64,000 nt of DNA. It comes from a virus. Taxonomy: Duplodnaviria > Caudoviricetes. This document shows positions 1,439 through 9,474 of the stretch, in pieces; within the stretch, counting starts at the first letter, position 1, and each line of letters starts with the position of its first letter. The stretch is taken from IMG/VR virus record IMGVR_UViG_3300024269_004845; one strand, given 5' to 3'. Under the pieces are notes generated by a model. That model was not told the DNA's origin and made no database searches. It saw only the letters and a list, made by a program, of their open reading frames with translations. A program made the position numbers and the translations under genes.

Positions 1439-1468
1439 GAAACCCCACGATGAGAATCGTGGGGTTTC
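1439..1468. terminator. Bidirectional intrinsic terminator
   Basis: GAAACCCCACGAT-gaga-ATCGTGGGGTTTC between convergent genes. Confidence 0.8.
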
Positions 1469-1486: not shown

Positions 1487-3709
1487 TTACTTCTGCATGA
1501 GCAGCATACGTACCTGCTTAACCAGTTCCTTAGAAATATCCTGAGGAGCGCAAGAGATGAGGTTCTTCTCATACATTTCCTTGTACTCACTCATAGTATT
1601 TCGACGGAAACCTTCGTCGCCAAAGAAAATAGCGATAACCTTGATACCTGCCTTACGAGCATTCTTAACGGCAGTCTTAACGTCGTTGATTGCCTGAGAA
1701 TGACTGCGATAGTCAGAAGGCAAACCGTCGGACAAAACCATCAGAATCTTATTCTGTTCCGAGCGCTTCATCAGTTCAGCAGTTGCAACCTTGATGGAGT
1801 AACCATCTTTGTTGCCGCCGCTGAAGCTGCGGCTGGTGCCGTAAGAATAAGCGTAATTGCGAACAGTATCACGGTCTTCAAACTTCTTAACCTGGAAATG
1901 CTTTACACAGTTTCCTTCAGTTGTGAAGTTAGTAATCTTCATTGGCATGAGGGGCTTCAGAGCCTCTTCGATGATGGCACAAGCCATGGTAGAGCGCTTC
2001 TGCTTTTCGCCGCACATAGAACCAGAACCGTCCCAAACAATGCTTACGCAAGAATCTACGTTAAGAGGGTTGCCCTTCTTTTCGAAAATTCTGAAGTCAT
2101 TAGTACCAACTCTGTGGATGGACTTCTTGTTGAGTCTGCCAGAATGCTGGTCAGCGAGGTCGAAAGCTTCCTGCTCACGGAAGAAAGCTTCAAGCTGCTT
2201 ACGAAGCATGCGACCCTGCTTGCGAATTTCATCAGGAGCAGGGAGGCTCACATTTACGTTTACAGCGTCGTAACCTTCGACATGGGGGTCATCATAACCT
2301 TCGCGGATGCTTTCGATATCAGCGGAGCTGAGGTCTTCAGATGCGGCTTCTTCTGCCTCAATCTTCTTGGACTGAGAGGTGTATTCCTTAGCAGCGGATT
2401 CCATACCTTCTTCGATAGCTCTGTCAATTTCTGCTTTTACGGCTTCGTTGACTTCGTTGATATCAGGAGTGCTTCCATCGGCCTGCTTGTTGCCAGAAGA
2501 AGTGCCCTGTCCGTTGTTGTCAGCGTTCTGGCCAGAAGAATCTTCACCATCTTCGCTGCCACCACGTTCGGCATGGTCGGGAGCTTCGCGCTTCGCTGCG
2601 AACGGGTCCTTGGAATAATCCTTACCTTCTTCACCAGAAGAGGAACCCTTGGACTTGTCTTCGCCCTCCTTACCATCTTTACCGTCCTTGCCTTCTCCAT
2701 CCTTGGATTCGCCGTCTTCGCCGTCCTGGTCTCCGTTACCAGCGCCAGTGCCATCCTGCTTCTTATCGGACTTCTTGCCTGCCTGACCTTTACCATTGCC
2801 CTTTCCAGATTTGCCAGGGACACTGATATGGACAGAGAGAGAATCTCCATCGAGGTCAGAATCGGGGCGCTCAAGAGCATTCTTGTTCTGGAAATCGACG
2901 AATTCTGCCAGAAGCTCCATGATTTCCTGCATTGTGGCAGCATCTTCAATCTCGACTAGCAGAAGCTTTTCGAGATAAGGCTTCAGCTTAAGGATAATTC
3001 TCTGAAGCTTTTTAGTAGCTACCAGAGGGCCAGCAATGTTGATGAATTCTGCCACGTCCTTACGAACCAGGTCGACGTTATCGCGGAGTTCCTGGTCGAG
3101 CTTGTCGTAGTACTGAGGGTCTACACCACTGGTTGCCAGATAGCAAAGACACATCATCAGATTGACAACGTTACTCTTTGCAGGAGTATCTGCCATTTTC
3201 CAAAAAGTACCATTCAGGAACTTCAGGTACTTTGCGGAACCAGGATACTTATTGACCACAAAGTGCTCACAACGACCGTCTTCCAATGCATTGTTTAACT
3301 GAGCGGCGATTCTACGTACAACGAGAGGCAACATCTTCTTGCCAGTAGGAGAAAGCTTGGGCTCAAGGTTACTAAATTCCATGATTGCCCAATCCTGGAA
3401 TTTCTTGAACTGACTGAAAGAGCTGAAAAGCAAATGGCTAGTCTCGTGGATGAGCAACGCCATACCCATCATCCATACTTCCATAAAAGTAAAGTTGATG
3501 CCTGCCTTCTTGGAAGCTTCCTTGTGGCCAGGATGGGATTCTAGAGTGAATTCGGGGATGCCAACCGTCACGCCACGGCCATCGGTAAAACTACCGCCAC
3601 CGTAGGGAACGTTGAGACGCAGGTCATGGCGACCTGTCATCATGCACATCTTTCTGAATCCAATCTGCTTCAGCTGGTTCAAAAGTTTCTTCATTTCCTT
3701 GTCTGTCAT
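1487..3709 (-). CDS. CobT-like protein: N-terminal HExxH metallopeptidase-like domain, acidic/Gly linker, C-terminal vWA domain
   Basis: HETSH...NNALEDGRCE; MIDAS DGSGS and LSDGLP. Start moved to the ATG at 3709, which follows AAGGAGG. Confidence 0.8.
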   Translation of the reverse strand: MTDKEMKKLLNQLKQIGFRKMCMMTGRHDLRLNVPYGGGSFTDGRGVTVGIPEFTLESHPGHKEASKKAGINFTFMEVWMMGMALLIHETSHLLFSSFSQFKKFQDWAIMEFSNLEPKLSPTGKKMLPLVVRRIAAQLNNALEDGRCEHFVVNKYPGSAKYLKFLNGTFWKMADTPAKSNVVNLMMCLCYLATSGVDPQYYDKLDQELRDNVDLVRKDVAEFINIAGPLVATKKLQRIILKLKPYLEKLLLVEIEDAATMQEIMELLAEFVDFQNKNALERPDSDLDGDSLSVHISVPGKSGKGNGKGQAGKKSDKKQDGTGAGNGDQDGEDGESKDGEGKDGKDGKEGEDKSKGSSSGEEGKDYSKDPFAAKREAPDHAERGGSEDGEDSSGQNADNNGQGTSSGNKQADGSTPDINEVNEAVKAEIDRAIEEGMESAAKEYTSQSKKIEAEEAASEDLSSADIESIREGYDDPHVEGYDAVNVNVSLPAPDEIRKQGRMLRKQLEAFFREQEAFDLADQHSGRLNKKSIHRVGTNDFRIFEKKGNPLNVDSCVSIVWDGSGSMCGEKQKRSTMACAIIEEALKPLMPMKITNFTTEGNCVKHFQVKKFEDRDTVRNYAYSYGTSRSFSGGNKDGYSIKVATAELMKRSEQNKILMVLSDGLPSDYRSHSQAINDVKTAVKNARKAGIKVIAIFFGDEGFRRNTMSEYKEMYEKNLISCAPQDISKELVKQVRMLLMQK

Positions 3710-3798
3710 ATTTTTTATCCTCCTTAGTATTCTTACCATTTTTGTTTTGAGCTTAATATATTATATAATTAAGCTTCATGAATTATCTAATATAAATC

Positions 3799-3830
3799 AC
3801 AAAAACCAAGACCGAAGTCTTGGTTTTTGT
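3799..3830 (-). terminator. Intrinsic terminator after AAA+ gene
   Basis: ACAAAAACCAAGAC-cgaa-GTCTTGGTTTTTGT. Confidence 0.7.
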
Positions 3831-3839
3831 TTTCTGTGG

Positions 3840-5651
3840 TTACTTAATCATCAGGTCTACGATGCTCTTAACCGCTTCGCGGTCTTCAACATCACGAATC
3901 TTAGGAACGATGGTGCTCATGATAGCACTCTTGATATCGTTACCCAGAGCGATGTTCTGTGCAGCGTAGATGAATGCACGCTGAGAGAAGCTGCGCTCCT
4001 GAATCTCTACACCACGAACACCCTTCAGCTTCTTGTAAAGCTCGTTAAGAATCTTTACGGCCTTAGCGGGAAGAGTAGGAACTTCCTGCTTCAGGATTTC
4101 TGCGATGTTGTCAGGTGCCTCGAACTCGATTACGTGCCAACGGTCCTCAAAGGCGAGGTTCAGCATGCTGGTACCAGCATATTCTGCACCTTCGTTCATA
4201 GTGGCAGTAAAAATAACGTCGTCATTGACTTCGATATTCTTATAACCATTGATGAGGATGTTACGGCGCTTATCGAGGGCGCTGTGGAGAGAAGATGTCA
4301 CAGTAGGACGAAGAGTGTTTACCTCGTCCAGATTGATGAGAGAAGGCTTCTCGAGGGCCTTAGTAAGGATGGAGGGCTCGAACTCAATCTGTGCGGTCTG
4401 AGAACGCATAGCGTCAAACAGAACAGAATAGTCGATATCGCCACCATTTTCCTTAATGGTCTCAATCTGCTCTTCAACGGAAGCGTTAGCGAACGCTTCC
4501 TTATCAATCTTTGCATTTGCGATAGCATCGATGAAAGATGCAAACGCAGCATTTACTGCATCAGGAGAAGGACACTCCTCGCTTGGCTTCATGGACAGAT
4601 AACCGTACAGGCCTTCCTCATCCACACCTGCGGAACAGGTCTTATCGATGAGGTTCAAATCCATGAGGTTGGCAAAGGTGGTAATGAACATGTTCTTACC
4701 ACTACCAGCGGGGCCAACCAGAAGCAGGTTACCCTTGGCGTAAGAGAAGGCGATAGCATTCTCTACTTCCTTGCCATGCGGGATGTAACAAGGAGCAAAC
4801 TCCACGATGTCCTTATGTCCTTCCATCTTCTTCACGAAGAGAGCGATTGCGTATTCAGCAACGCCGACATTCTTCAGCCAGTCGATGCGCTTCTGAACTT
4901 CGGCAGCATCTGCTTCAGCAAAGGACTTCAGAAGCTTATCGTAGTCCTTAGAAGGAGCAGCGACAGCGGCAACCTCTTCCTTCACTTCAACGGTGATGGT
5001 TACAGGGAATACCAGACCATCTACGAACTTAACCTCTGCGGAAGTGTTCTTAGATACCTTCATCGCAGAAACGATATCAGCAACGTTGTCCAGCTTGATA
5101 CCCTTAGCATTTAGGGTAGTCTTTGCAGTAGAGGAAATCTCTGCGGTAGCCATACCGCAAGGAACCTCGTTGTAGTCAAAGACGATGGACTCGTCGTTTT
5201 CAATCTTGGCCACGACAGGAACGGAGCCATTCTTGCGGGAAGCGGAAGCAACCTGCATACGATTAGGGTAGTTGAGCTTATTGCCAGCCAACAGGGTCCA
5301 GTAAGTCTTGGTTACAGTTCCACTGGTAGGAGCAGCGGCTTCCTTAACAGGAATGCCCACCAGAAGAGGGTCAATAGATGTAACCTTAACCAAGTCACCT
5401 TCGGCAACCATATTGAAGACATCCTTTGCCATAGGATATCCATTTGCCGTAGAAGGACGGGCCGCAACGAAACCCACCTCATTGCCATCGGCGGTTTCGA
5501 GCTTGATTGCATAAGGGTCTTCCTTGTAAGTGTTCAAACGAACAACCAGACTATCGCTGGTAGTCAGTCCCTTTGCCATGCTCTTACTAGCGGGTCCAAC
5601 AACGCGAACCTCCTGAATTTCTACGGTATTGTTTTTCTTAGTTCTAGCCAT
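3840..5651 (-). CDS. MoxR/CbbQ/CobS-type AAA+ ATPase with N-terminal HIRAN-like domain(s)
   Basis: Walker A GPAGSGKN, Walker B INLDEVN, sensor ATMN, Arg finger LAFEDRW. N-terminal DPYAIKLETADGNEVGFVA resembles HIRAN. Confidence 0.85.
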   Translation of the reverse strand: MARTKKNNTVEIQEVRVVGPASKSMAKGLTTSDSLVVRLNTYKEDPYAIKLETADGNEVGFVAARPSTANGYPMAKDVFNMVAEGDLVKVTSIDPLLVGIPVKEAAAPTSGTVTKTYWTLLAGNKLNYPNRMQVASASRKNGSVPVVAKIENDESIVFDYNEVPCGMATAEISSTAKTTLNAKGIKLDNVADIVSAMKVSKNTSAEVKFVDGLVFPVTITVEVKEEVAAVAAPSKDYDKLLKSFAEADAAEVQKRIDWLKNVGVAEYAIALFVKKMEGHKDIVEFAPCYIPHGKEVENAIAFSYAKGNLLLVGPAGSGKNMFITTFANLMDLNLIDKTCSAGVDEEGLYGYLSMKPSEECPSPDAVNAAFASFIDAIANAKIDKEAFANASVEEQIETIKENGGDIDYSVLFDAMRSQTAQIEFEPSILTKALEKPSLINLDEVNTLRPTVTSSLHSALDKRRNILINGYKNIEVNDDVIFTATMNEGAEYAGTSMLNLAFEDRWHVIEFEAPDNIAEILKQEVPTLPAKAVKILNELYKKLKGVRGVEIQERSFSQRAFIYAAQNIALGNDIKSAIMSTIVPKIRDVEDREAVKSIVDLMIK

Positions 5652-5695
5652 GTTTTTTTCCTCCCATTAAAATCTTTTGTTTTTTGGATACTAAA

Positions 5696-6976
5696 TTATA
5701 CTGTGAAAACATACTCCATATAAGCCTTTTTAACTTCTTCATCTGGAGATTTTGCATTCACTTTTGTCAGGAGCTTATTGACTCCTGTGTTGAATTGCTC
5801 GAAAGTTTTCATCCGAAGATATGGCCTGACATCGCCAAATTCGGAGATAAGGTCATCGATACCTTTTGTTTCGTCGGTATAATCCCACAGTGCATATTCA
5901 ACGGAAATTCCGTTTGCTTCGAGTTCCTGGCCGAGTTTAGCAGCCTGAGTAAGAACATTAATATTATAGCACATATCGGAGTCATACGCAACGATTACTC
6001 CCGAAAACTTAGGATACAGGGCCTTAAGACCCTTGATGGTACTCATGATTGGGCGCCAATTCGTAACGCCCTGAATACTGATTGCTGACATGCCATACTG
6101 TTTTCTGATTGCAACAGCCTTGAAAAAGCCTTCGGTAATGAACATTTTCTTGGTAAATTTACCAAGTTCAAAGCCAATTGGGCTACCAGGGCTCAAACCA
6201 TCCTGCAGATATGCGTTGTCAGGGTCATCTTTCAGACAAAAGCTGGAAGAAAACCAAACATACTTGTTGTCAGCCTTTGGGTCTCTTTTTCTGATTTGCA
6301 ATCCAACAATTTTACCCTCAAAGTCTTTACATGGGATAATAATGCCAGACTGATATCCGAATGAGAAAGGCTCTCCTTCTTTTTTGAAAAATCCAGGGAC
6401 TTCAAACAAAACGTCTGTTGTTCCGAACTTTTCGGAGACCTTAGACTCTAATTCCTTACGCAGACTCAAGAGTCTGCGAGGAAACGTTTTGAAGCCATAG
6501 GTCTGAATTTCGTCATCCGTGAACCCTCTTGTCTTCAAAAGGGCTGCATCTTCTTCGCTTAATGTAAGCATATCGAGGAAAATTCGATAAACTTCATCCA
6601 TCACTTGAAGATTTAGGACTTTCTTGACCGAAGGAATGGTCAAGATTTTACGCTCTACATCAGTGGAAATACGACCACTGAAATAGCCGAGGTTGAATTC
6701 CTTGGCTAGGCGCTTAACAGCATCGACAAAGCTTAAGCTGTACAGCTCCATGTAGAACTTTACGGGGCCACCAACGATATCCAACTTCCAATCGTGGAAA
6801 ATATTATTGGGAACGTTGATATTAAAAGACCCCAAACTGCCAGAAGGACGAAGCGGGCTTACAGTTTTAAGATTAGGGCCAACGCCACTAAAAACGCAAC
6901 CTACTCCTTCCAGGACTTCTTTTATCGGAAGTGCATTGCACTGTTCCGATAATTCTTCAAATGACTTCTTAGCCAT
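5696..6976 (-). CDS. Primase-like protein: Cys-less CHC2-like domain plus TOPRIM (DUF3854-like)
   Basis: SPLR..GSFNIN..FHDW..GGPVKF..SFVDAVKRL; TOPRIM motifs FITEGFFKA, AYDSD, KGIDD. Confidence 0.75.
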   Translation of the reverse strand: MAKKSFEELSEQCNALPIKEVLEGVGCVFSGVGPNLKTVSPLRPSGSLGSFNINVPNNIFHDWKLDIVGGPVKFYMELYSLSFVDAVKRLAKEFNLGYFSGRISTDVERKILTIPSVKKVLNLQVMDEVYRIFLDMLTLSEEDAALLKTRGFTDDEIQTYGFKTFPRRLLSLRKELESKVSEKFGTTDVLFEVPGFFKKEGEPFSFGYQSGIIIPCKDFEGKIVGLQIRKRDPKADNKYVWFSSSFCLKDDPDNAYLQDGLSPGSPIGFELGKFTKKMFITEGFFKAVAIRKQYGMSAISIQGVTNWRPIMSTIKGLKALYPKFSGVIVAYDSDMCYNINVLTQAAKLGQELEANGISVEYALWDYTDETKGIDDLISEFGDVRPYLRMKTFEQFNTGVNKLLTKVNAKSPDEEVKKAYMEYVFTV

Positions 6977-6997
6977 CGTTATTCTCCTCCTCCCATA

Positions 6998-7597
6998 CTA
7001 GAACGGGCTTTCGCCTACCTTTCTTGACACATCCTCGCCCTGCTGTGTATTTCGTTTCGCATCTCTGATTTTGCGAACGTCGTTACACCACAGAGCTAGA
7101 ACATTTCTCAGAGAACCTACCTTAGTCAGCTTTAGCTCACCGATGATAGAAATCGTATCGCCCTTCAGAACATTCTGATGCAGATAAATCGCGTCTGCAT
7201 CAAAAGCGATGAAAGGCAAGAAGAGTACGATACCTCCATCAGACTTAGACTGGAAAGGAATGTCCTTCATCTCGGGTACGTACTGAATGGACTTCTCGTA
7301 CCGTTCTCGAGAAATATTTACTGCTACAGTGGGCATTCGCAGATTGCGAAGCTCAACAGGAACGCTAGGAGTGTTATGAACTACCTCTTTAACGCCATTG
7401 ATGACCACGTTGTTCGTGGAGGTGGCACCTCGTACATTATCCTTTACCAGATAAAACGGTGTCACCAGCTTACTGCTTCCCTTGCAAAGGAAAGGGAAAT
7501 CATCGGTGGTGTTGCCTACACACTGAACGATATTTCTATCTCTATCGTCGTGTACGGCAAACAGGTAGTTCAAATCCTTTTTGTTGTTCTTCTCCAT
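6998..7597 (-). CDS. Divergent single-stranded DNA-binding protein (OB fold)
   Basis: FLPFIAFDADAIYLHQNVLKGDTISIIGEL matches the SSB core. C-terminus ends in PF. Confidence 0.55.
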   Translation of the reverse strand: MEKNNKKDLNYLFAVHDDRDRNIVQCVGNTTDDFPFLCKGSSKLVTPFYLVKDNVRGATSTNNVVINGVKEVVHNTPSVPVELRNLRMPTVAVNISRERYEKSIQYVPEMKDIPFQSKSDGGIVLFLPFIAFDADAIYLHQNVLKGDTISIIGELKLTKVGSLRNVLALWCNDVRKIRDAKRNTQQGEDVSRKVGESPF

Positions 7598-7619: not shown

Positions 7620-7645
7620 TGTGCTTATATTATTATATAAATATT
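7620..7645 (-). promoter_or_regulatory. Conserved upstream motif copy (identical 26-mer to 24118-24143)
   Basis: AATATTTATATAATAATATAAGCACA contains a TATAAT -10 and lies just upstream of the ssb RBS. Confidence 0.7.
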
Positions 7646-7773
7646 AAATCTAAATAATAAGCGCAAGCGAACAAAATAATTTACTTATATTAATGATAAC
7701 ACAAAATATCGAAAAAAGAAATGCACATAACATATAAAATTTGTTACGTGCATTTATATATTTTTGTTATGTT

Positions 7774-9474
7774 TTATTTTTGGTTCCTTTGTTCTTGCCA
7801 GATACTATATGCATCGGGATATTCTTCAAGAACAGACTCATCAATAATGAAATTTCCATACTCGTCATAGTGACCTGTAATCTTAATACCACCTTGTTCT
7901 TCAATTAAGACTTCTGGCCTTACATAATCACCAATCTCGTTTCTAACAAGCAATACGCCGTCGCTATCAACTAATTCGCCTTTGGAATTATAATAATTGC
8001 CGTCTTTATTTTGTACGTATTTCACTACTTTTCCGTTGGAATCTATAATATTGTTGTATCTATCAATAAATTCACCATTTTTATTAATAGCTCTTCCTTT
8101 TTCATCAACTCTCTGTCCATACTTATTGATTCTGTCATTATTTTCATCAACGAGTTCTCCATCGCTATTAATAAAGTAATTTTCTCTATTTACCAAACGG
8201 CCATCGCTGTCGTAGTAATAATCATTAATATAAGGCTTGTTTGCTATAAAAATATCGGAATATTTTCTTTCTTGTCCTGTTGGGTCTTTTTTGATTTCTG
8301 CAAAATCACTAGAGCCAATAGAACCTATTAGAAAATAATCTTCATATGGGTTAAACAAATAAACATCTAGGTTTTTAGACAATACTTTTGTTGGTAGATA
8401 AGGAATACCAATAGTGTATAATTCTGCATAGTCATCATATCTGAAAACTCTTAGTTGGCTAAAGTTTTTATTACTAATGGTAGTTTTAAACAACGCGTAA
8501 ATGTTATTGTTTTTATCTACATACATGTGTAATGGATTTGCATATTGGATTTCAATGGCCTTATTAATATTCATATCTTTATAATCTACATTTAGAATTA
8601 AAGATTTTTCAGAACCATCACCAAAGTCACTAATTGTATAAATATTTTTATTTATACCGTCCATATATGTAGAGGTTACTGGGCGAATACTTCCATAATG
8701 TAAAGTTATTTGGTCATTTTCTATATCGTATTGTCCCATTTGAGTTTCATTAAAGAAGTAAATGTACTGAGTATTTGCAACCCAAGTATTAACATTTCCT
8801 GGAAGTTCGTATGTTGCCTTTGAAATTTTGGGGAAATTTGTAAGTTCTATATCAATTGTTGTCATATATTTATCTAAACCAGTATACCCTAAAAATTCTT
8901 TAGAATAATTCTCCATATAAACGTATGTTGCTTCTTTGCTTGTATTTACTGGGACATTTGTTGCATATGATAATTTTCCATCATCTGAAAGAATTTGTGG
9001 TCTGACATAGGAATAAATATTTGCTTTGGTTTCTGGATTATCTGTTGAATAATAAAATAATCCATTATATCCATAAATATCTTCTATATTACTTTCTTTT
9101 AAAATATAGTCTTTCATTGTTTTTAGTTCGTTTTTATAAACTAAAATCATTGTCATTTTTCTGGAAGTCTTATCTACGGCATATAATATGCGAGGCACAT
9201 TTTCGACTCCTTCTAATTGGCTACTATAAAGATTTCCTTCATCCATTGCATAAATATATTCACTTTCTTCGCCGCCGTTCAAATCTATTTCGGAAACAAC
9301 ATTACTTAGGTCGTCAAACATTGTAACAATTCCGTTTTCCGTTGTTAAAATATAATCTCCATTTCTAACAACTTCTGTAACTACATCTTGTTTCTGAGAA
9401 GTAGATGAACAACCTGTTAATATAGAAAAAATTGTACATATTACTAACAAAAGAGATACTCTTTTCTTTATCAT
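7774..9474 (-). CDS. Lipoprotein with beta-rich body and C-terminal short-period repeats
   Basis: Lipobox ILTGC. (D/N)xxG-x-(V/I) repeats near the C-terminus. Confidence 0.7.
   Translation of the reverse strand: MIKKRVSLLLVICTIFSILTGCSSTSQKQDVVTEVVRNGDYILTTENGIVTMFDDLSNVVSEIDLNGGEESEYIYAMDEGNLYSSQLEGVENVPRILYAVDKTSRKMTMILVYKNELKTMKDYILKESNIEDIYGYNGLFYYSTDNPETKANIYSYVRPQILSDDGKLSYATNVPVNTSKEATYVYMENYSKEFLGYTGLDKYMTTIDIELTNFPKISKATYELPGNVNTWVANTQYIYFFNETQMGQYDIENDQITLHYGSIRPVTSTYMDGINKNIYTISDFGDGSEKSLILNVDYKDMNINKAIEIQYANPLHMYVDKNNNIYALFKTTISNKNFSQLRVFRYDDYAELYTIGIPYLPTKVLSKNLDVYLFNPYEDYFLIGSIGSSDFAEIKKDPTGQERKYSDIFIANKPYINDYYYDSDGRLVNRENYFINSDGELVDENNDRINKYGQRVDEKGRAINKNGEFIDRYNNIIDSNGKVVKYVQNKDGNYYNSKGELVDSDGVLLVRNEIGDYVRPEVLIEEQGGIKITGHYDEYGNFIIDESVLEEYPDAYSIWQEQRNQK

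Follow-up and report, generated by a model that had tools for sequence, protein, structure and literature searches.

Few unexplained genes are as common in large phages, phage-plasmids and conjugative plasmids as the pairs of a CobS/CobT-like ATPase and a von Willebrand factor A (vWA) protein, which are often counted as metabolic (cobalamin) genes. Here we analyze one such pair in a 64,000-nucleotide stretch of viral DNA (Duplodnaviria; Caudoviricetes; IMG/VR record IMGVR_UViG_3300024269_004845), referred to at its full length as the window. Four minus-strand genes of one orientation, spanning positions 1487-7597, encode an SSB-like protein, a primase, an AAA+ ATPase and a CobT-like partner of the ATPase. 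The ATPase combines a MoxR-class AAA+ module with two predicted HIRAN-fold domains in tandem, and we give about an even chance to the reading that it acts, together with its partner, as a DNA-end-anchored remodeller or protease in the DNA-synthesis or establishment module of the element. The pair type is already known; what is new, in the literature searched, is the tandem-HIRAN fusion and the fixed place between primase and polymerase genes. The four genes are the following.

6998..7597, minus strand: SSB-like gene, 199 aa, first gene of the operon
5696..6976, minus strand: DnaG-like primase gene, 426 aa
3840..5651, minus strand: gene for the MoxR-type AAA+ ATPase with two predicted HIRAN-fold domains, 603 aa
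1487..3739, minus strand: CobT-like partner gene, 750-aa open reading frame (ORF)

Comparison with described systems

Iyer et al. (2021; PMC7824862) described a MoxR and metallopeptidase-vWA pair in group 2.2 jumbo phages and proposed that it has a role in virion assembly. The window pair resembles it in consisting of a CobS/CbbQ-like AAA_5 ATPase and a partner with an HExxH motif, an acidic linker and a CobT-type vWA domain, and both window proteins match the PHROGs of the jumbo-phage genes, which are usually annotated as phage CobS/CobT. The described jumbo-phage ATPases (PMC7824862), however, lack HIRAN, whereas the window pair belongs to a module of SSB and primase (and, in distant relatives, dnaE) genes, on plasmids that have no virion genes nearby. 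An assembly chaperone or protease of the kind proposed for the jumbo phages, or alternatively a true CobS/CobT cobaltochelatase, is what the PHROG and Pfam labels of the relatives ('CobS/CobT' or 'porphyrin biosynthesis') would imply, but either function is scarcely credible for the window pair. The partner scores 15.6 bits with the CobT model TIGR01651, for which the cut-off is 759; DNA-metabolism genes surround the pair in the window, as they do in related loci, with no CobN among them, although no dedicated CobN search was made; and a tandem DNA-end-binding domain, as predicted for the ATPase, has no place in cobalt insertion or in capsid assembly.

In IncC plasmids, vcrx089 (AAA_5 and CbbQ_C) and vcrx090, which share an operon with ssb, bet and exo, act in the recipient and shield entering DNA from type I restriction (Roy et al. 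2020; PMC7498323). The anti-restriction activity was confirmed in E. coli by Dimitriu et al. (2024; PMC11602122), and IncC plasmids from which vcrx089-090 were deleted show a 25- to ~900-fold rise in sensitivity to type I restriction-modification (PMC7498323, PMC11602122). We examined the IncC hde locus in plasmid pAR060302 (L020, 23680-31673), where the genes come in the order vcrx089-homologue ATPase, a gene of no family, ssb, bet, exo, a DUF3150 gene and a CobT-like HExxH-vWA gene. The pAR060302 ATPase (322 aa, AAA_5 and CbbQ_C) is 26% identical to the window ATPase (BLASTP E = 6e-6), and the 598-aa CobT/VWA protein, encoded two genes after exo, is a full-length homologue of the window partner (BLASTP E = 2e-21) that keeps its TDG, HExxH, LED-x-R-x-E and metal-ion-dependent adhesion site (MIDAS) motifs. 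This CobT-like HExxH-vWA protein may supply the adaptor that the published anti-restriction ATPase has been missing.

Both loci thus link a homologous ATPase and a vWA protein to ssb on a conjugative element, whereas the IncC locus lacks HIRAN, has the extra Vcrx090 and DUF3150 genes, and has its ATPase and vWA genes split by the recombination cassette. DUF3150 matched none of the window proteins scanned, and no counterpart of Vcrx090 was seen in the window block, where no direct comparison with Vcrx090 was made. The anti-restriction phenotype is proven for IncC hde, whereas the window module is likened to it from its genes. These data bear on an alternative, already proposed for the IncC/SXT hde genes vcrx089-090, in which the machine would remove or destroy host restriction enzymes or other nucleases sitting on newly made element DNA, with SSB and primase serving as the usual early establishment genes of a conjugative element. 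We regard this alternative as less likely than not. It is consistent with the sensitivity of the deletion mutants and the action of the genes in the recipient, with the homology of both IncC proteins to the window pair, with ssb between them, and with the conjugation genes of the window (T4 coupling protein and HerA-like ATPase). It is weakened by the distance and the missing HIRAN of the IncC ATPase, by the deletion itself, which removed vcrx089-090 and not the vWA gene, by the Vcrx090 and DUF3150 results just described, and by the distant HIRAN-fusion relatives, most of which are typed as non-mobilizable and have the module beside dnaE.

Among cellular systems, NorQ-NorD and CbbQ-CbbO provide the best match to the AAA+ core and a similar logic of a motor with a MIDAS adaptor, but they act on NO reductase and Rubisco, respectively, and have neither a DNA-binding domain nor an HExxH motif in the adaptor. 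The eukaryotic HLTF and Rad5 proteins share the fusion of an N-terminal HIRAN to an ATPase (predicted domain 2 vs. HLTF, Z = 8.8; domain 1 vs. K. lactis Rad5, Z = 6.5), but are SNF2 DNA translocases with a RING ligase and one HIRAN, whereas the window protein joins a MoxR-type AAA+ module to two predicted ones. HIRAN is a fold that binds DNA 3' ends; in HLTF, it binds the 3' ends of nascent DNA and places the motor there. With regard to the literature on large elements and on AAA+ proteins, a megaplasmid ('Hodor') preprint makes no mention of the SSB-primase-ATPase-partner module, and a preprint on AAA+ clamp disassembly (10.1101/2025.01.13.632716) mentions neither MoxR nor vWA.

Predicted HIRAN domains and the AAA+ core of the ATPase

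5340..5624, minus strand: HIRAN domain 1, residues ~10-104, motif Y42-x-x-D45-P-x-A-I...G60
4968..5330, minus strand: predicted HIRAN-fold domain 2, residues ~108-228, conserved G123-x-K125, P129-x-R131 and G166
4392..4589, minus strand: helical insert of ~65 aa, residues ~355-420, between Walker A and Walker B at the helix-2-insert position

The N-terminal region (residues 1-240) was modelled on the basis of 22 sequences, with a mean pLDDT of 90.6 and a pLDDT of ~95 in domain 1. When the model was searched against structural representatives, the two best matches were both HIRAN domains, namely, Lactobacillus plantarum lp_0118 (3k2y) for residues 6-104 (Z = 9.1) and HLTF HIRAN (4xzg) for residues 108-236 (Z = 8.6). 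After realignment of the top 1000 Foldseek matches, the six best rows were all HIRAN: domain 1 aligned with 3k2y at Z = 9.4 (root-mean-square deviation, rmsd, 3.0 over 87 residues), and domain 2 aligned with the HLTF entries 6kcs, 5bnh, 4xzg, 4s0n and 4xzf at Z = 8.6-8.8 (100-104 residues), followed by an unrelated fold, Cas12f WED, at Z = 6.5. The Foldseek probability was 1.00 for 3k2y and HLTF, and in the BFVD viral library phage HIRAN proteins were the top matches to the N-terminus. The same Foldseek comparison gave PCNA and beta-clamp rows (probability <=0.15, rmsd ~19 Å), and a clamp-like fold was rejected, with these rows taken as artefacts of the two-domain query.

At the sequence level, the HIRAN family PF08797 was matched in 7 of the 16 ATPase relatives over the same N-terminal domain (best E = 4.2e-7, domain 1 only). 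The Brevibacillus plasmid homologue scores 27.9 bits, above the gathering score, and of the five named Bacillota plasmid ATPases, all but the Geobacillus copy have a detectable N-terminal HIRAN. Sequence searches against solved structures returned nothing with the whole N-terminal profile, noise only with the Brevibacillus N-terminus, and HLTF at E ~0.7 with the domain 1 profile; in this weak profile-sequence alignment, the invariant D45 is paired with the Asp of PYDKNAIKV in HLTF. We take this Asp (D94), from the HLTF structure papers, to be a residue that contacts the 3'-OH. Domain 2 has no Pfam match.

The initial annotation had described a HIRAN-like N-terminus, quoting a peptide that corresponds to residues 45-68 (nt 5448-5519) inside domain 1, and a probable second, degenerate copy, and had suggested a Foldseek check of this region. 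The predicted folds bear out both assignments, together with the Pfam matches in relatives for the first, such that the ATPase appears to carry two N-terminal HIRAN-fold domains in tandem. The accompanying remark that no HIRAN-MoxR fusion had been described also holds: in the literature searched, no paper links HIRAN to MoxR or vWA, none describes a tandem-HIRAN fusion, and the placement of a HIRAN-ATPase between primase and polymerase is not described. Prokaryotic HIRAN domains were still called uncharacterised in a 2024 paper (PMC11090510).

The C-terminal 300 residues form a MoxR-class AAA+ module (Pfam AAA_5, E = 1.5e-16), for which the nearest solved proteins are NorQ and CbbQ, both by sequence and by fold (Foldseek E = 1e-15 to 1e-16, TM 0.85-0.90 normalised to the target). 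CbbQ_C is matched by 12 of the 14 family members and falls below the cut-off in the window copy (E = 0.0086). Walker A (G313-x4-G318-K319), Walker B (D442-E443), N486, R504 and R558 are invariant over 16 diverse relatives that reach down to ~20% identity. Judged from these motifs, the protein is a putative MoxR-class (CbbQ/NorQ/CobS-like) AAA+ ATPase with intact catalytic sites, in agreement with the class first assigned to it. The ~65-aa insert noted at the same time is real and is helical in a structural model covering it (helices at 363-380, 384-389, 392-402 and 409-416; pLDDT ~70-79); it is confined to the clade of the window, and the C. difficile, Bt407, Brevibacillus, Geobacillus and C. 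perfringens homologues lack it.

With the N-terminal profile of the ATPase, 16 clusters were found among 1.84 billion representatives, mostly of 540-604 aa and with the same architecture, and an ATPase identical to that of the window is encoded on 16 metagenomic contigs, the longest of 265,931 bp. The phage collection searched yielded partial, weak AAA matches only, and the species-representative genomes searched yielded 150 pattern matches, none of which was confirmed.

The CobT-like partner

2870-3709, minus strand: HExxH domain, residues ~11-290, with HETSH at nt 3434-3448
residues ~291-480 (~190 aa), minus strand: acidic linker rich in Gly, Lys, Asp and Glu
MIDAS motif DGSGS at nt 2018-2032, minus strand: C-terminal vWA domain

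The partner matches Pfam CobT_C (E = 8e-11) and VWA (E = 1e-6) as well as PHROG families labelled 'CobT' or cobalamin, and its vWA domain matches the solved vWA domains of CobT and NorD. Within the partner family, H98-E99-x-x-H102 and N150-x-x-E153-D154-G-R-x-E158 are invariant, as is the MIDAS D570-x-S572-x-S574 in six close family members; plasmid homologues from C. difficile, B. thuringiensis, Brevibacillus, Geobacillus and C. perfringens share the HExxH and E-D-G-R-x-E motifs. The HETSH and NxxED protease-like motifs and the MIDAS vWA domain that had been read in this protein are therefore present and invariant in its family. No Pfam peptidase family matched the N-terminal domain, and a search with residues 1-290 returned close family members only; from the HExxH motif and the literature, we infer a zincin-type peptidase. 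Taken by its motifs, the partner is a putative CobT-like adaptor in which an acidic linker joins an HExxH...E zinc-site signature to a complete MIDAS vWA domain.

Conservation of the module across megaplasmids

In close relatives of the window (54-94% identity), the entire neighborhood is syntenic. The order SSB, primase, HIRAN-ATPase and HExxH-vWA partner also recurs in distant Bacillota megaplasmids whose ATPases are 20-30% identical, and the pair is found in further elements in modified surroundings.

C. difficile BI1, 300 kb: SSB-like, CHC2 primase, ATPase, VWA, dnaE
Brevibacillus, 414 kb: SSB, primase, ATPase, partner, dnaE
Geobacillus pGspE55-1: SSB, primase, MoxR, VWA, with dnaE a few genes on
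C. perfringens pJFP838A: same SSB-primase-ATPase-partner order, dnaE downstream
235-kb metagenomic contig: same SSB-primase-ATPase-partner order, dnaE downstream
Bt407 BTB_502p: HerA-like ATPase in the place of the primase, pair and dnaE retained
Klebsiella SSU5-like phage-plasmid (enterobacterial): vWA, CobS-like ATPase without HIRAN, dnaE

The linkage of the ATPase with ssb and primase, for which the initial annotation had proposed a check of neighborhood conservation, thus extends far beyond the element's own family, to the C. difficile, Brevibacillus, Geobacillus and C. perfringens plasmids and the 235-kb contig. Because the same order is maintained at 20-30% identity, the four genes qualify as a conserved DNA-synthesis module. 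All five elements with the full order have a downstream dnaE, which adjoins the partner gene in three of them and is a few genes away in the other two. Since the module abuts dnaE in most distant relatives, the context points to replication or establishment rather than to conjugative strand handling specifically. A Pfam search of the whole records of five plasmids of 127-502 kb (L008, L009, L010, L014 and L015) found no dnaN, clamp-loader delta' or dnaB; these plasmids encode dnaE, SSB and a primase (or a HerA-like ATPase).

This context is relevant to another alternative, namely, that HIRAN would read the 3' ends of primers made by the adjacent primase, and that the pair would remodel SSB, primase or polymerase, or would recruit or strip the host clamp or polymerase to allow takeover by DnaE. 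A role of this kind is consistent with the position of the pair, which is flanked by primase and dnaE in at least five divergent elements and adjoins dnaE in the enterobacterial phage-plasmid, with the five plasmids that have no dnaN, clamp-loader or dnaB genes of their own by Pfam, and with the binding of HIRAN to the 3' ends of nascent DNA, as in HLTF. However, dnaE does not adjoin the module in the window's own family, and the invariant HExxH motif suggests destruction rather than hand-off. To our knowledge, no MoxR-vWA system functions in replication. On contextual evidence of this kind, we consider such a replisome accessory role rather unlikely.

The conservation data also bear on the possibility that the element carries a defense system, in which HIRAN would sense the free DNA ends of an invading phage or plasmid and trigger proteolysis. 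DNA ends are a plausible invader signal, and vWA-MoxR systems are reportedly recurrent in prokaryotic conflict systems, according to surveys from the Aravind laboratory. Nevertheless, PADLOC matched neither the ATPase nor the partner, and the pair resides in a replication operon rather than in a defense island and belongs to the conserved backbone rather than to the variable genes, which makes a defense function very unlikely.

SSB-like protein, primase and neighboring genes

The 199-aa product of the first gene has no Pfam match of its own, whereas PF00436 (SSB) is matched by four of its seven orthologues (best E = 8.5e-7); the solved SSB 7r4w matches the family profile weakly (E = 0.09), and the proteins in the same position in distant plasmids are annotated or score as SSB. 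The SSB call made earlier is supported through these relatives, with the window copy itself remaining below detection by Pfam, and we describe the protein as a divergent, SSB-like protein with a putative oligonucleotide/oligosaccharide-binding (OB) fold. Its C-terminus, ...GESPF (6998-7012), recalls the ...DDDIPF tip of bacterial SSBs, but is found in the window copy only, the orthologues having different ends.

The call of the second gene as a TOPRIM primase is sound. Its product contains a CHC2 zinc ribbon, a DnaG N-terminal core and a TOPRIM-type DUF3854 domain (Pfam DUF3854, E = 5e-12; DNAG_N, E = 7e-5; Zn_ribbon_DnaG, E = 1e-4), and it is matched by a PHROG of DNA primases (E = 1.6e-12). 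With TIGR01391 (dnaG), it is matched at E = 3e-19 but scores far under the equivalog cut-off and is, therefore, a DnaG-like primase and not the host DnaG.

A 566-aa protein is encoded at 7774-9474 on the minus strand; its gene immediately precedes the SSB gene in every close relative and has a terminator of its own. The copies in relatives are 545-577 aa long, that in L017 still being 54% identical, and no match was found in Pfam, NCBIfam, PHROGs or PADLOC. Elsewhere in the window, the region 32840-57649 encodes a T4 coupling protein, a HerA-like ATPase, an SbcCD-like fusion (Metallophos+AAA_23), an RNase R/II-type RNB protein, a RecD2 helicase and a type IA topoisomerase. This gene content fits a giant conjugative plasmid-like element of gut bacteria.

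Gene starts, transcription signals and codon usage

7711-7755 (approximate): hairpin and T-run ending the upstream 566-aa gene, before the SSB promoter-like site, read in the sequence
7632..7660, minus strand: promoter-like TTATT...TATAAT 5' of the SSB gene, read in the sequence
3799-3830, minus strand: intergenic hairpin (14-bp stem) separating the ATPase gene from the partner gene, fold z-score -6.8
3760-3789, minus strand: promoter-like TAGATA-18-TATAAT after the intergenic hairpin, from a sequence scan
1439..1468, minus strand: terminator-like hairpin with a 13-bp stem and T-run at the module end, from a sequence scan

A strong ribosome-binding site, AAGGAGG, precedes the ATG of the SSB gene. 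The same motif lies 8 nt ahead of an ATG at 3709 in the partner gene, for which the annotatable ORF begins at 3739; because this ATG also encodes the first residue conserved among partner orthologues, it is probably the true start, giving a protein of 740 aa. A strong hairpin follows the ATPase stop codon in all five relatives compared (L001, L004, L007, L012 and L013), each time with a different sequence and mostly with a U-run, and a promoter-like TAGATAA...TATAAT follows the hairpin in several relatives. Thus, a transcriptional break before the partner gene appears to be conserved, and the partner gene seems to be transcribed separately from, or more weakly than, the ATPase gene; weaker transcription would fit a 6:1 ratio of motor to adaptor.

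The four co-oriented genes were also correctly recognized at the outset by their shared, GC-richer codon usage: GC content at third codon positions (GC3) is 0.43-0.53 in the module genes vs. 0.20-0.29 in the flanking genes. Much the same values for module and flanks are found in L001 (8026-14191; ATPase 63% identical), whereas in L004 (6460-12547; ATPase 58% identical) module and flanks are alike at GC3 ~0.2. Given that GC3 is raised across all of them in both the window and L001, the four genes behave as a unit; the rise could come from expression-linked codon use or from block replacement in one sub-lineage. The long plus-strand ORFs at 1700-2959 and 3612-5114 were rejected as shadows of the GC-rich minus-strand genes.

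Proposed mechanism

In the reading that we give an even chance, the ATPase would form a hexamer on which one adaptor docks, gripping the target protein via its MIDAS, as inferred from NorQ-NorD and CbbQ-CbbO. The HIRAN domains would hold the motor at free 3'-OH ends, that is, the ends of primers, nascent strands or entering strands, by analogy with HLTF and Rad5. ATP hydrolysis would then pull the captured protein and the HExxH domain, considering its conserved motif, would cut it. The likeliest classes of targets would be host proteins that attack or block new element DNA, or replisome components at the primer end. Nucleases and restriction enzymes of the host are suggested by the IncC data. 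These were obtained with a HIRAN-less relative of 26% identity, are the sole experiments on a homologous ATPase gene pair, and show a function on DNA entering a new cell. Replisome components are suggested by the primase and dnaE context and by the missing clamp genes.

Several observations weigh against this reading. With regard to the domain assignments, PF08797 on the window ATPase alone reaches E = 0.21 and 11.9 bits, under the cut-off of 24.7, and the Z values of 8-9 obtained for the fold are modestly above the tool background of 7-8. Domain 2 is HIRAN by predicted fold, and the second HIRAN depends on this prediction because the two halves share no detectable sequence similarity (profile-profile comparison with hhalign, probability 0.8%). 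With regard to the module, part of the synteny may stem from shared ancestry in one old megaplasmid lineage, because RuvC also recurs nearby, and the relative L019 lacks primase and SSB upstream. Furthermore, the vWA partner gene comes next after the ATPase gene in the window and in most relatives, but in two sister lineages that retain SSB, primase and ATPase its place is taken by the gene of an unrelated protein of 330-368 aa without HExxH or vWA (L017, 10886-11878, and the P0020 locus); the P0020 ATPase is 456 aa long and has one N-terminal domain only. Given this replacement and the conserved terminator and promoter between the two genes, the pairing of ATPase and partner is not obligatory.

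Implications for CobS/CobT-like genes

The sole functional datum on CobS/CobT-like pairs is the unexplained anti-restriction phenotype of IncC resistance plasmids. In many Bacillota megaplasmids, a motor of this type, fused to two predicted HIRAN domains, has a fixed place between primase and polymerase genes, and the family can therefore be argued to act on DNA-bound proteins; this suggests the same for the puzzling CobS/CobT-like pairs that phages and plasmids carry. A more far-reaching and, in our estimate, improbable version of this view is that the HIRAN-MoxR motor and its HExxH-vWA adaptor constitute an unrecognised replication factor of large elements, which would remodel or cleave the host replisome or SSB at primer 3' ends, with DnaE working without an element-encoded clamp or clamp loader. 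If true, 'CobS/CobT' genes, widespread as they are in phages and plasmids, would serve DNA replication or DNA protection and would not be vitamin B12 genes.

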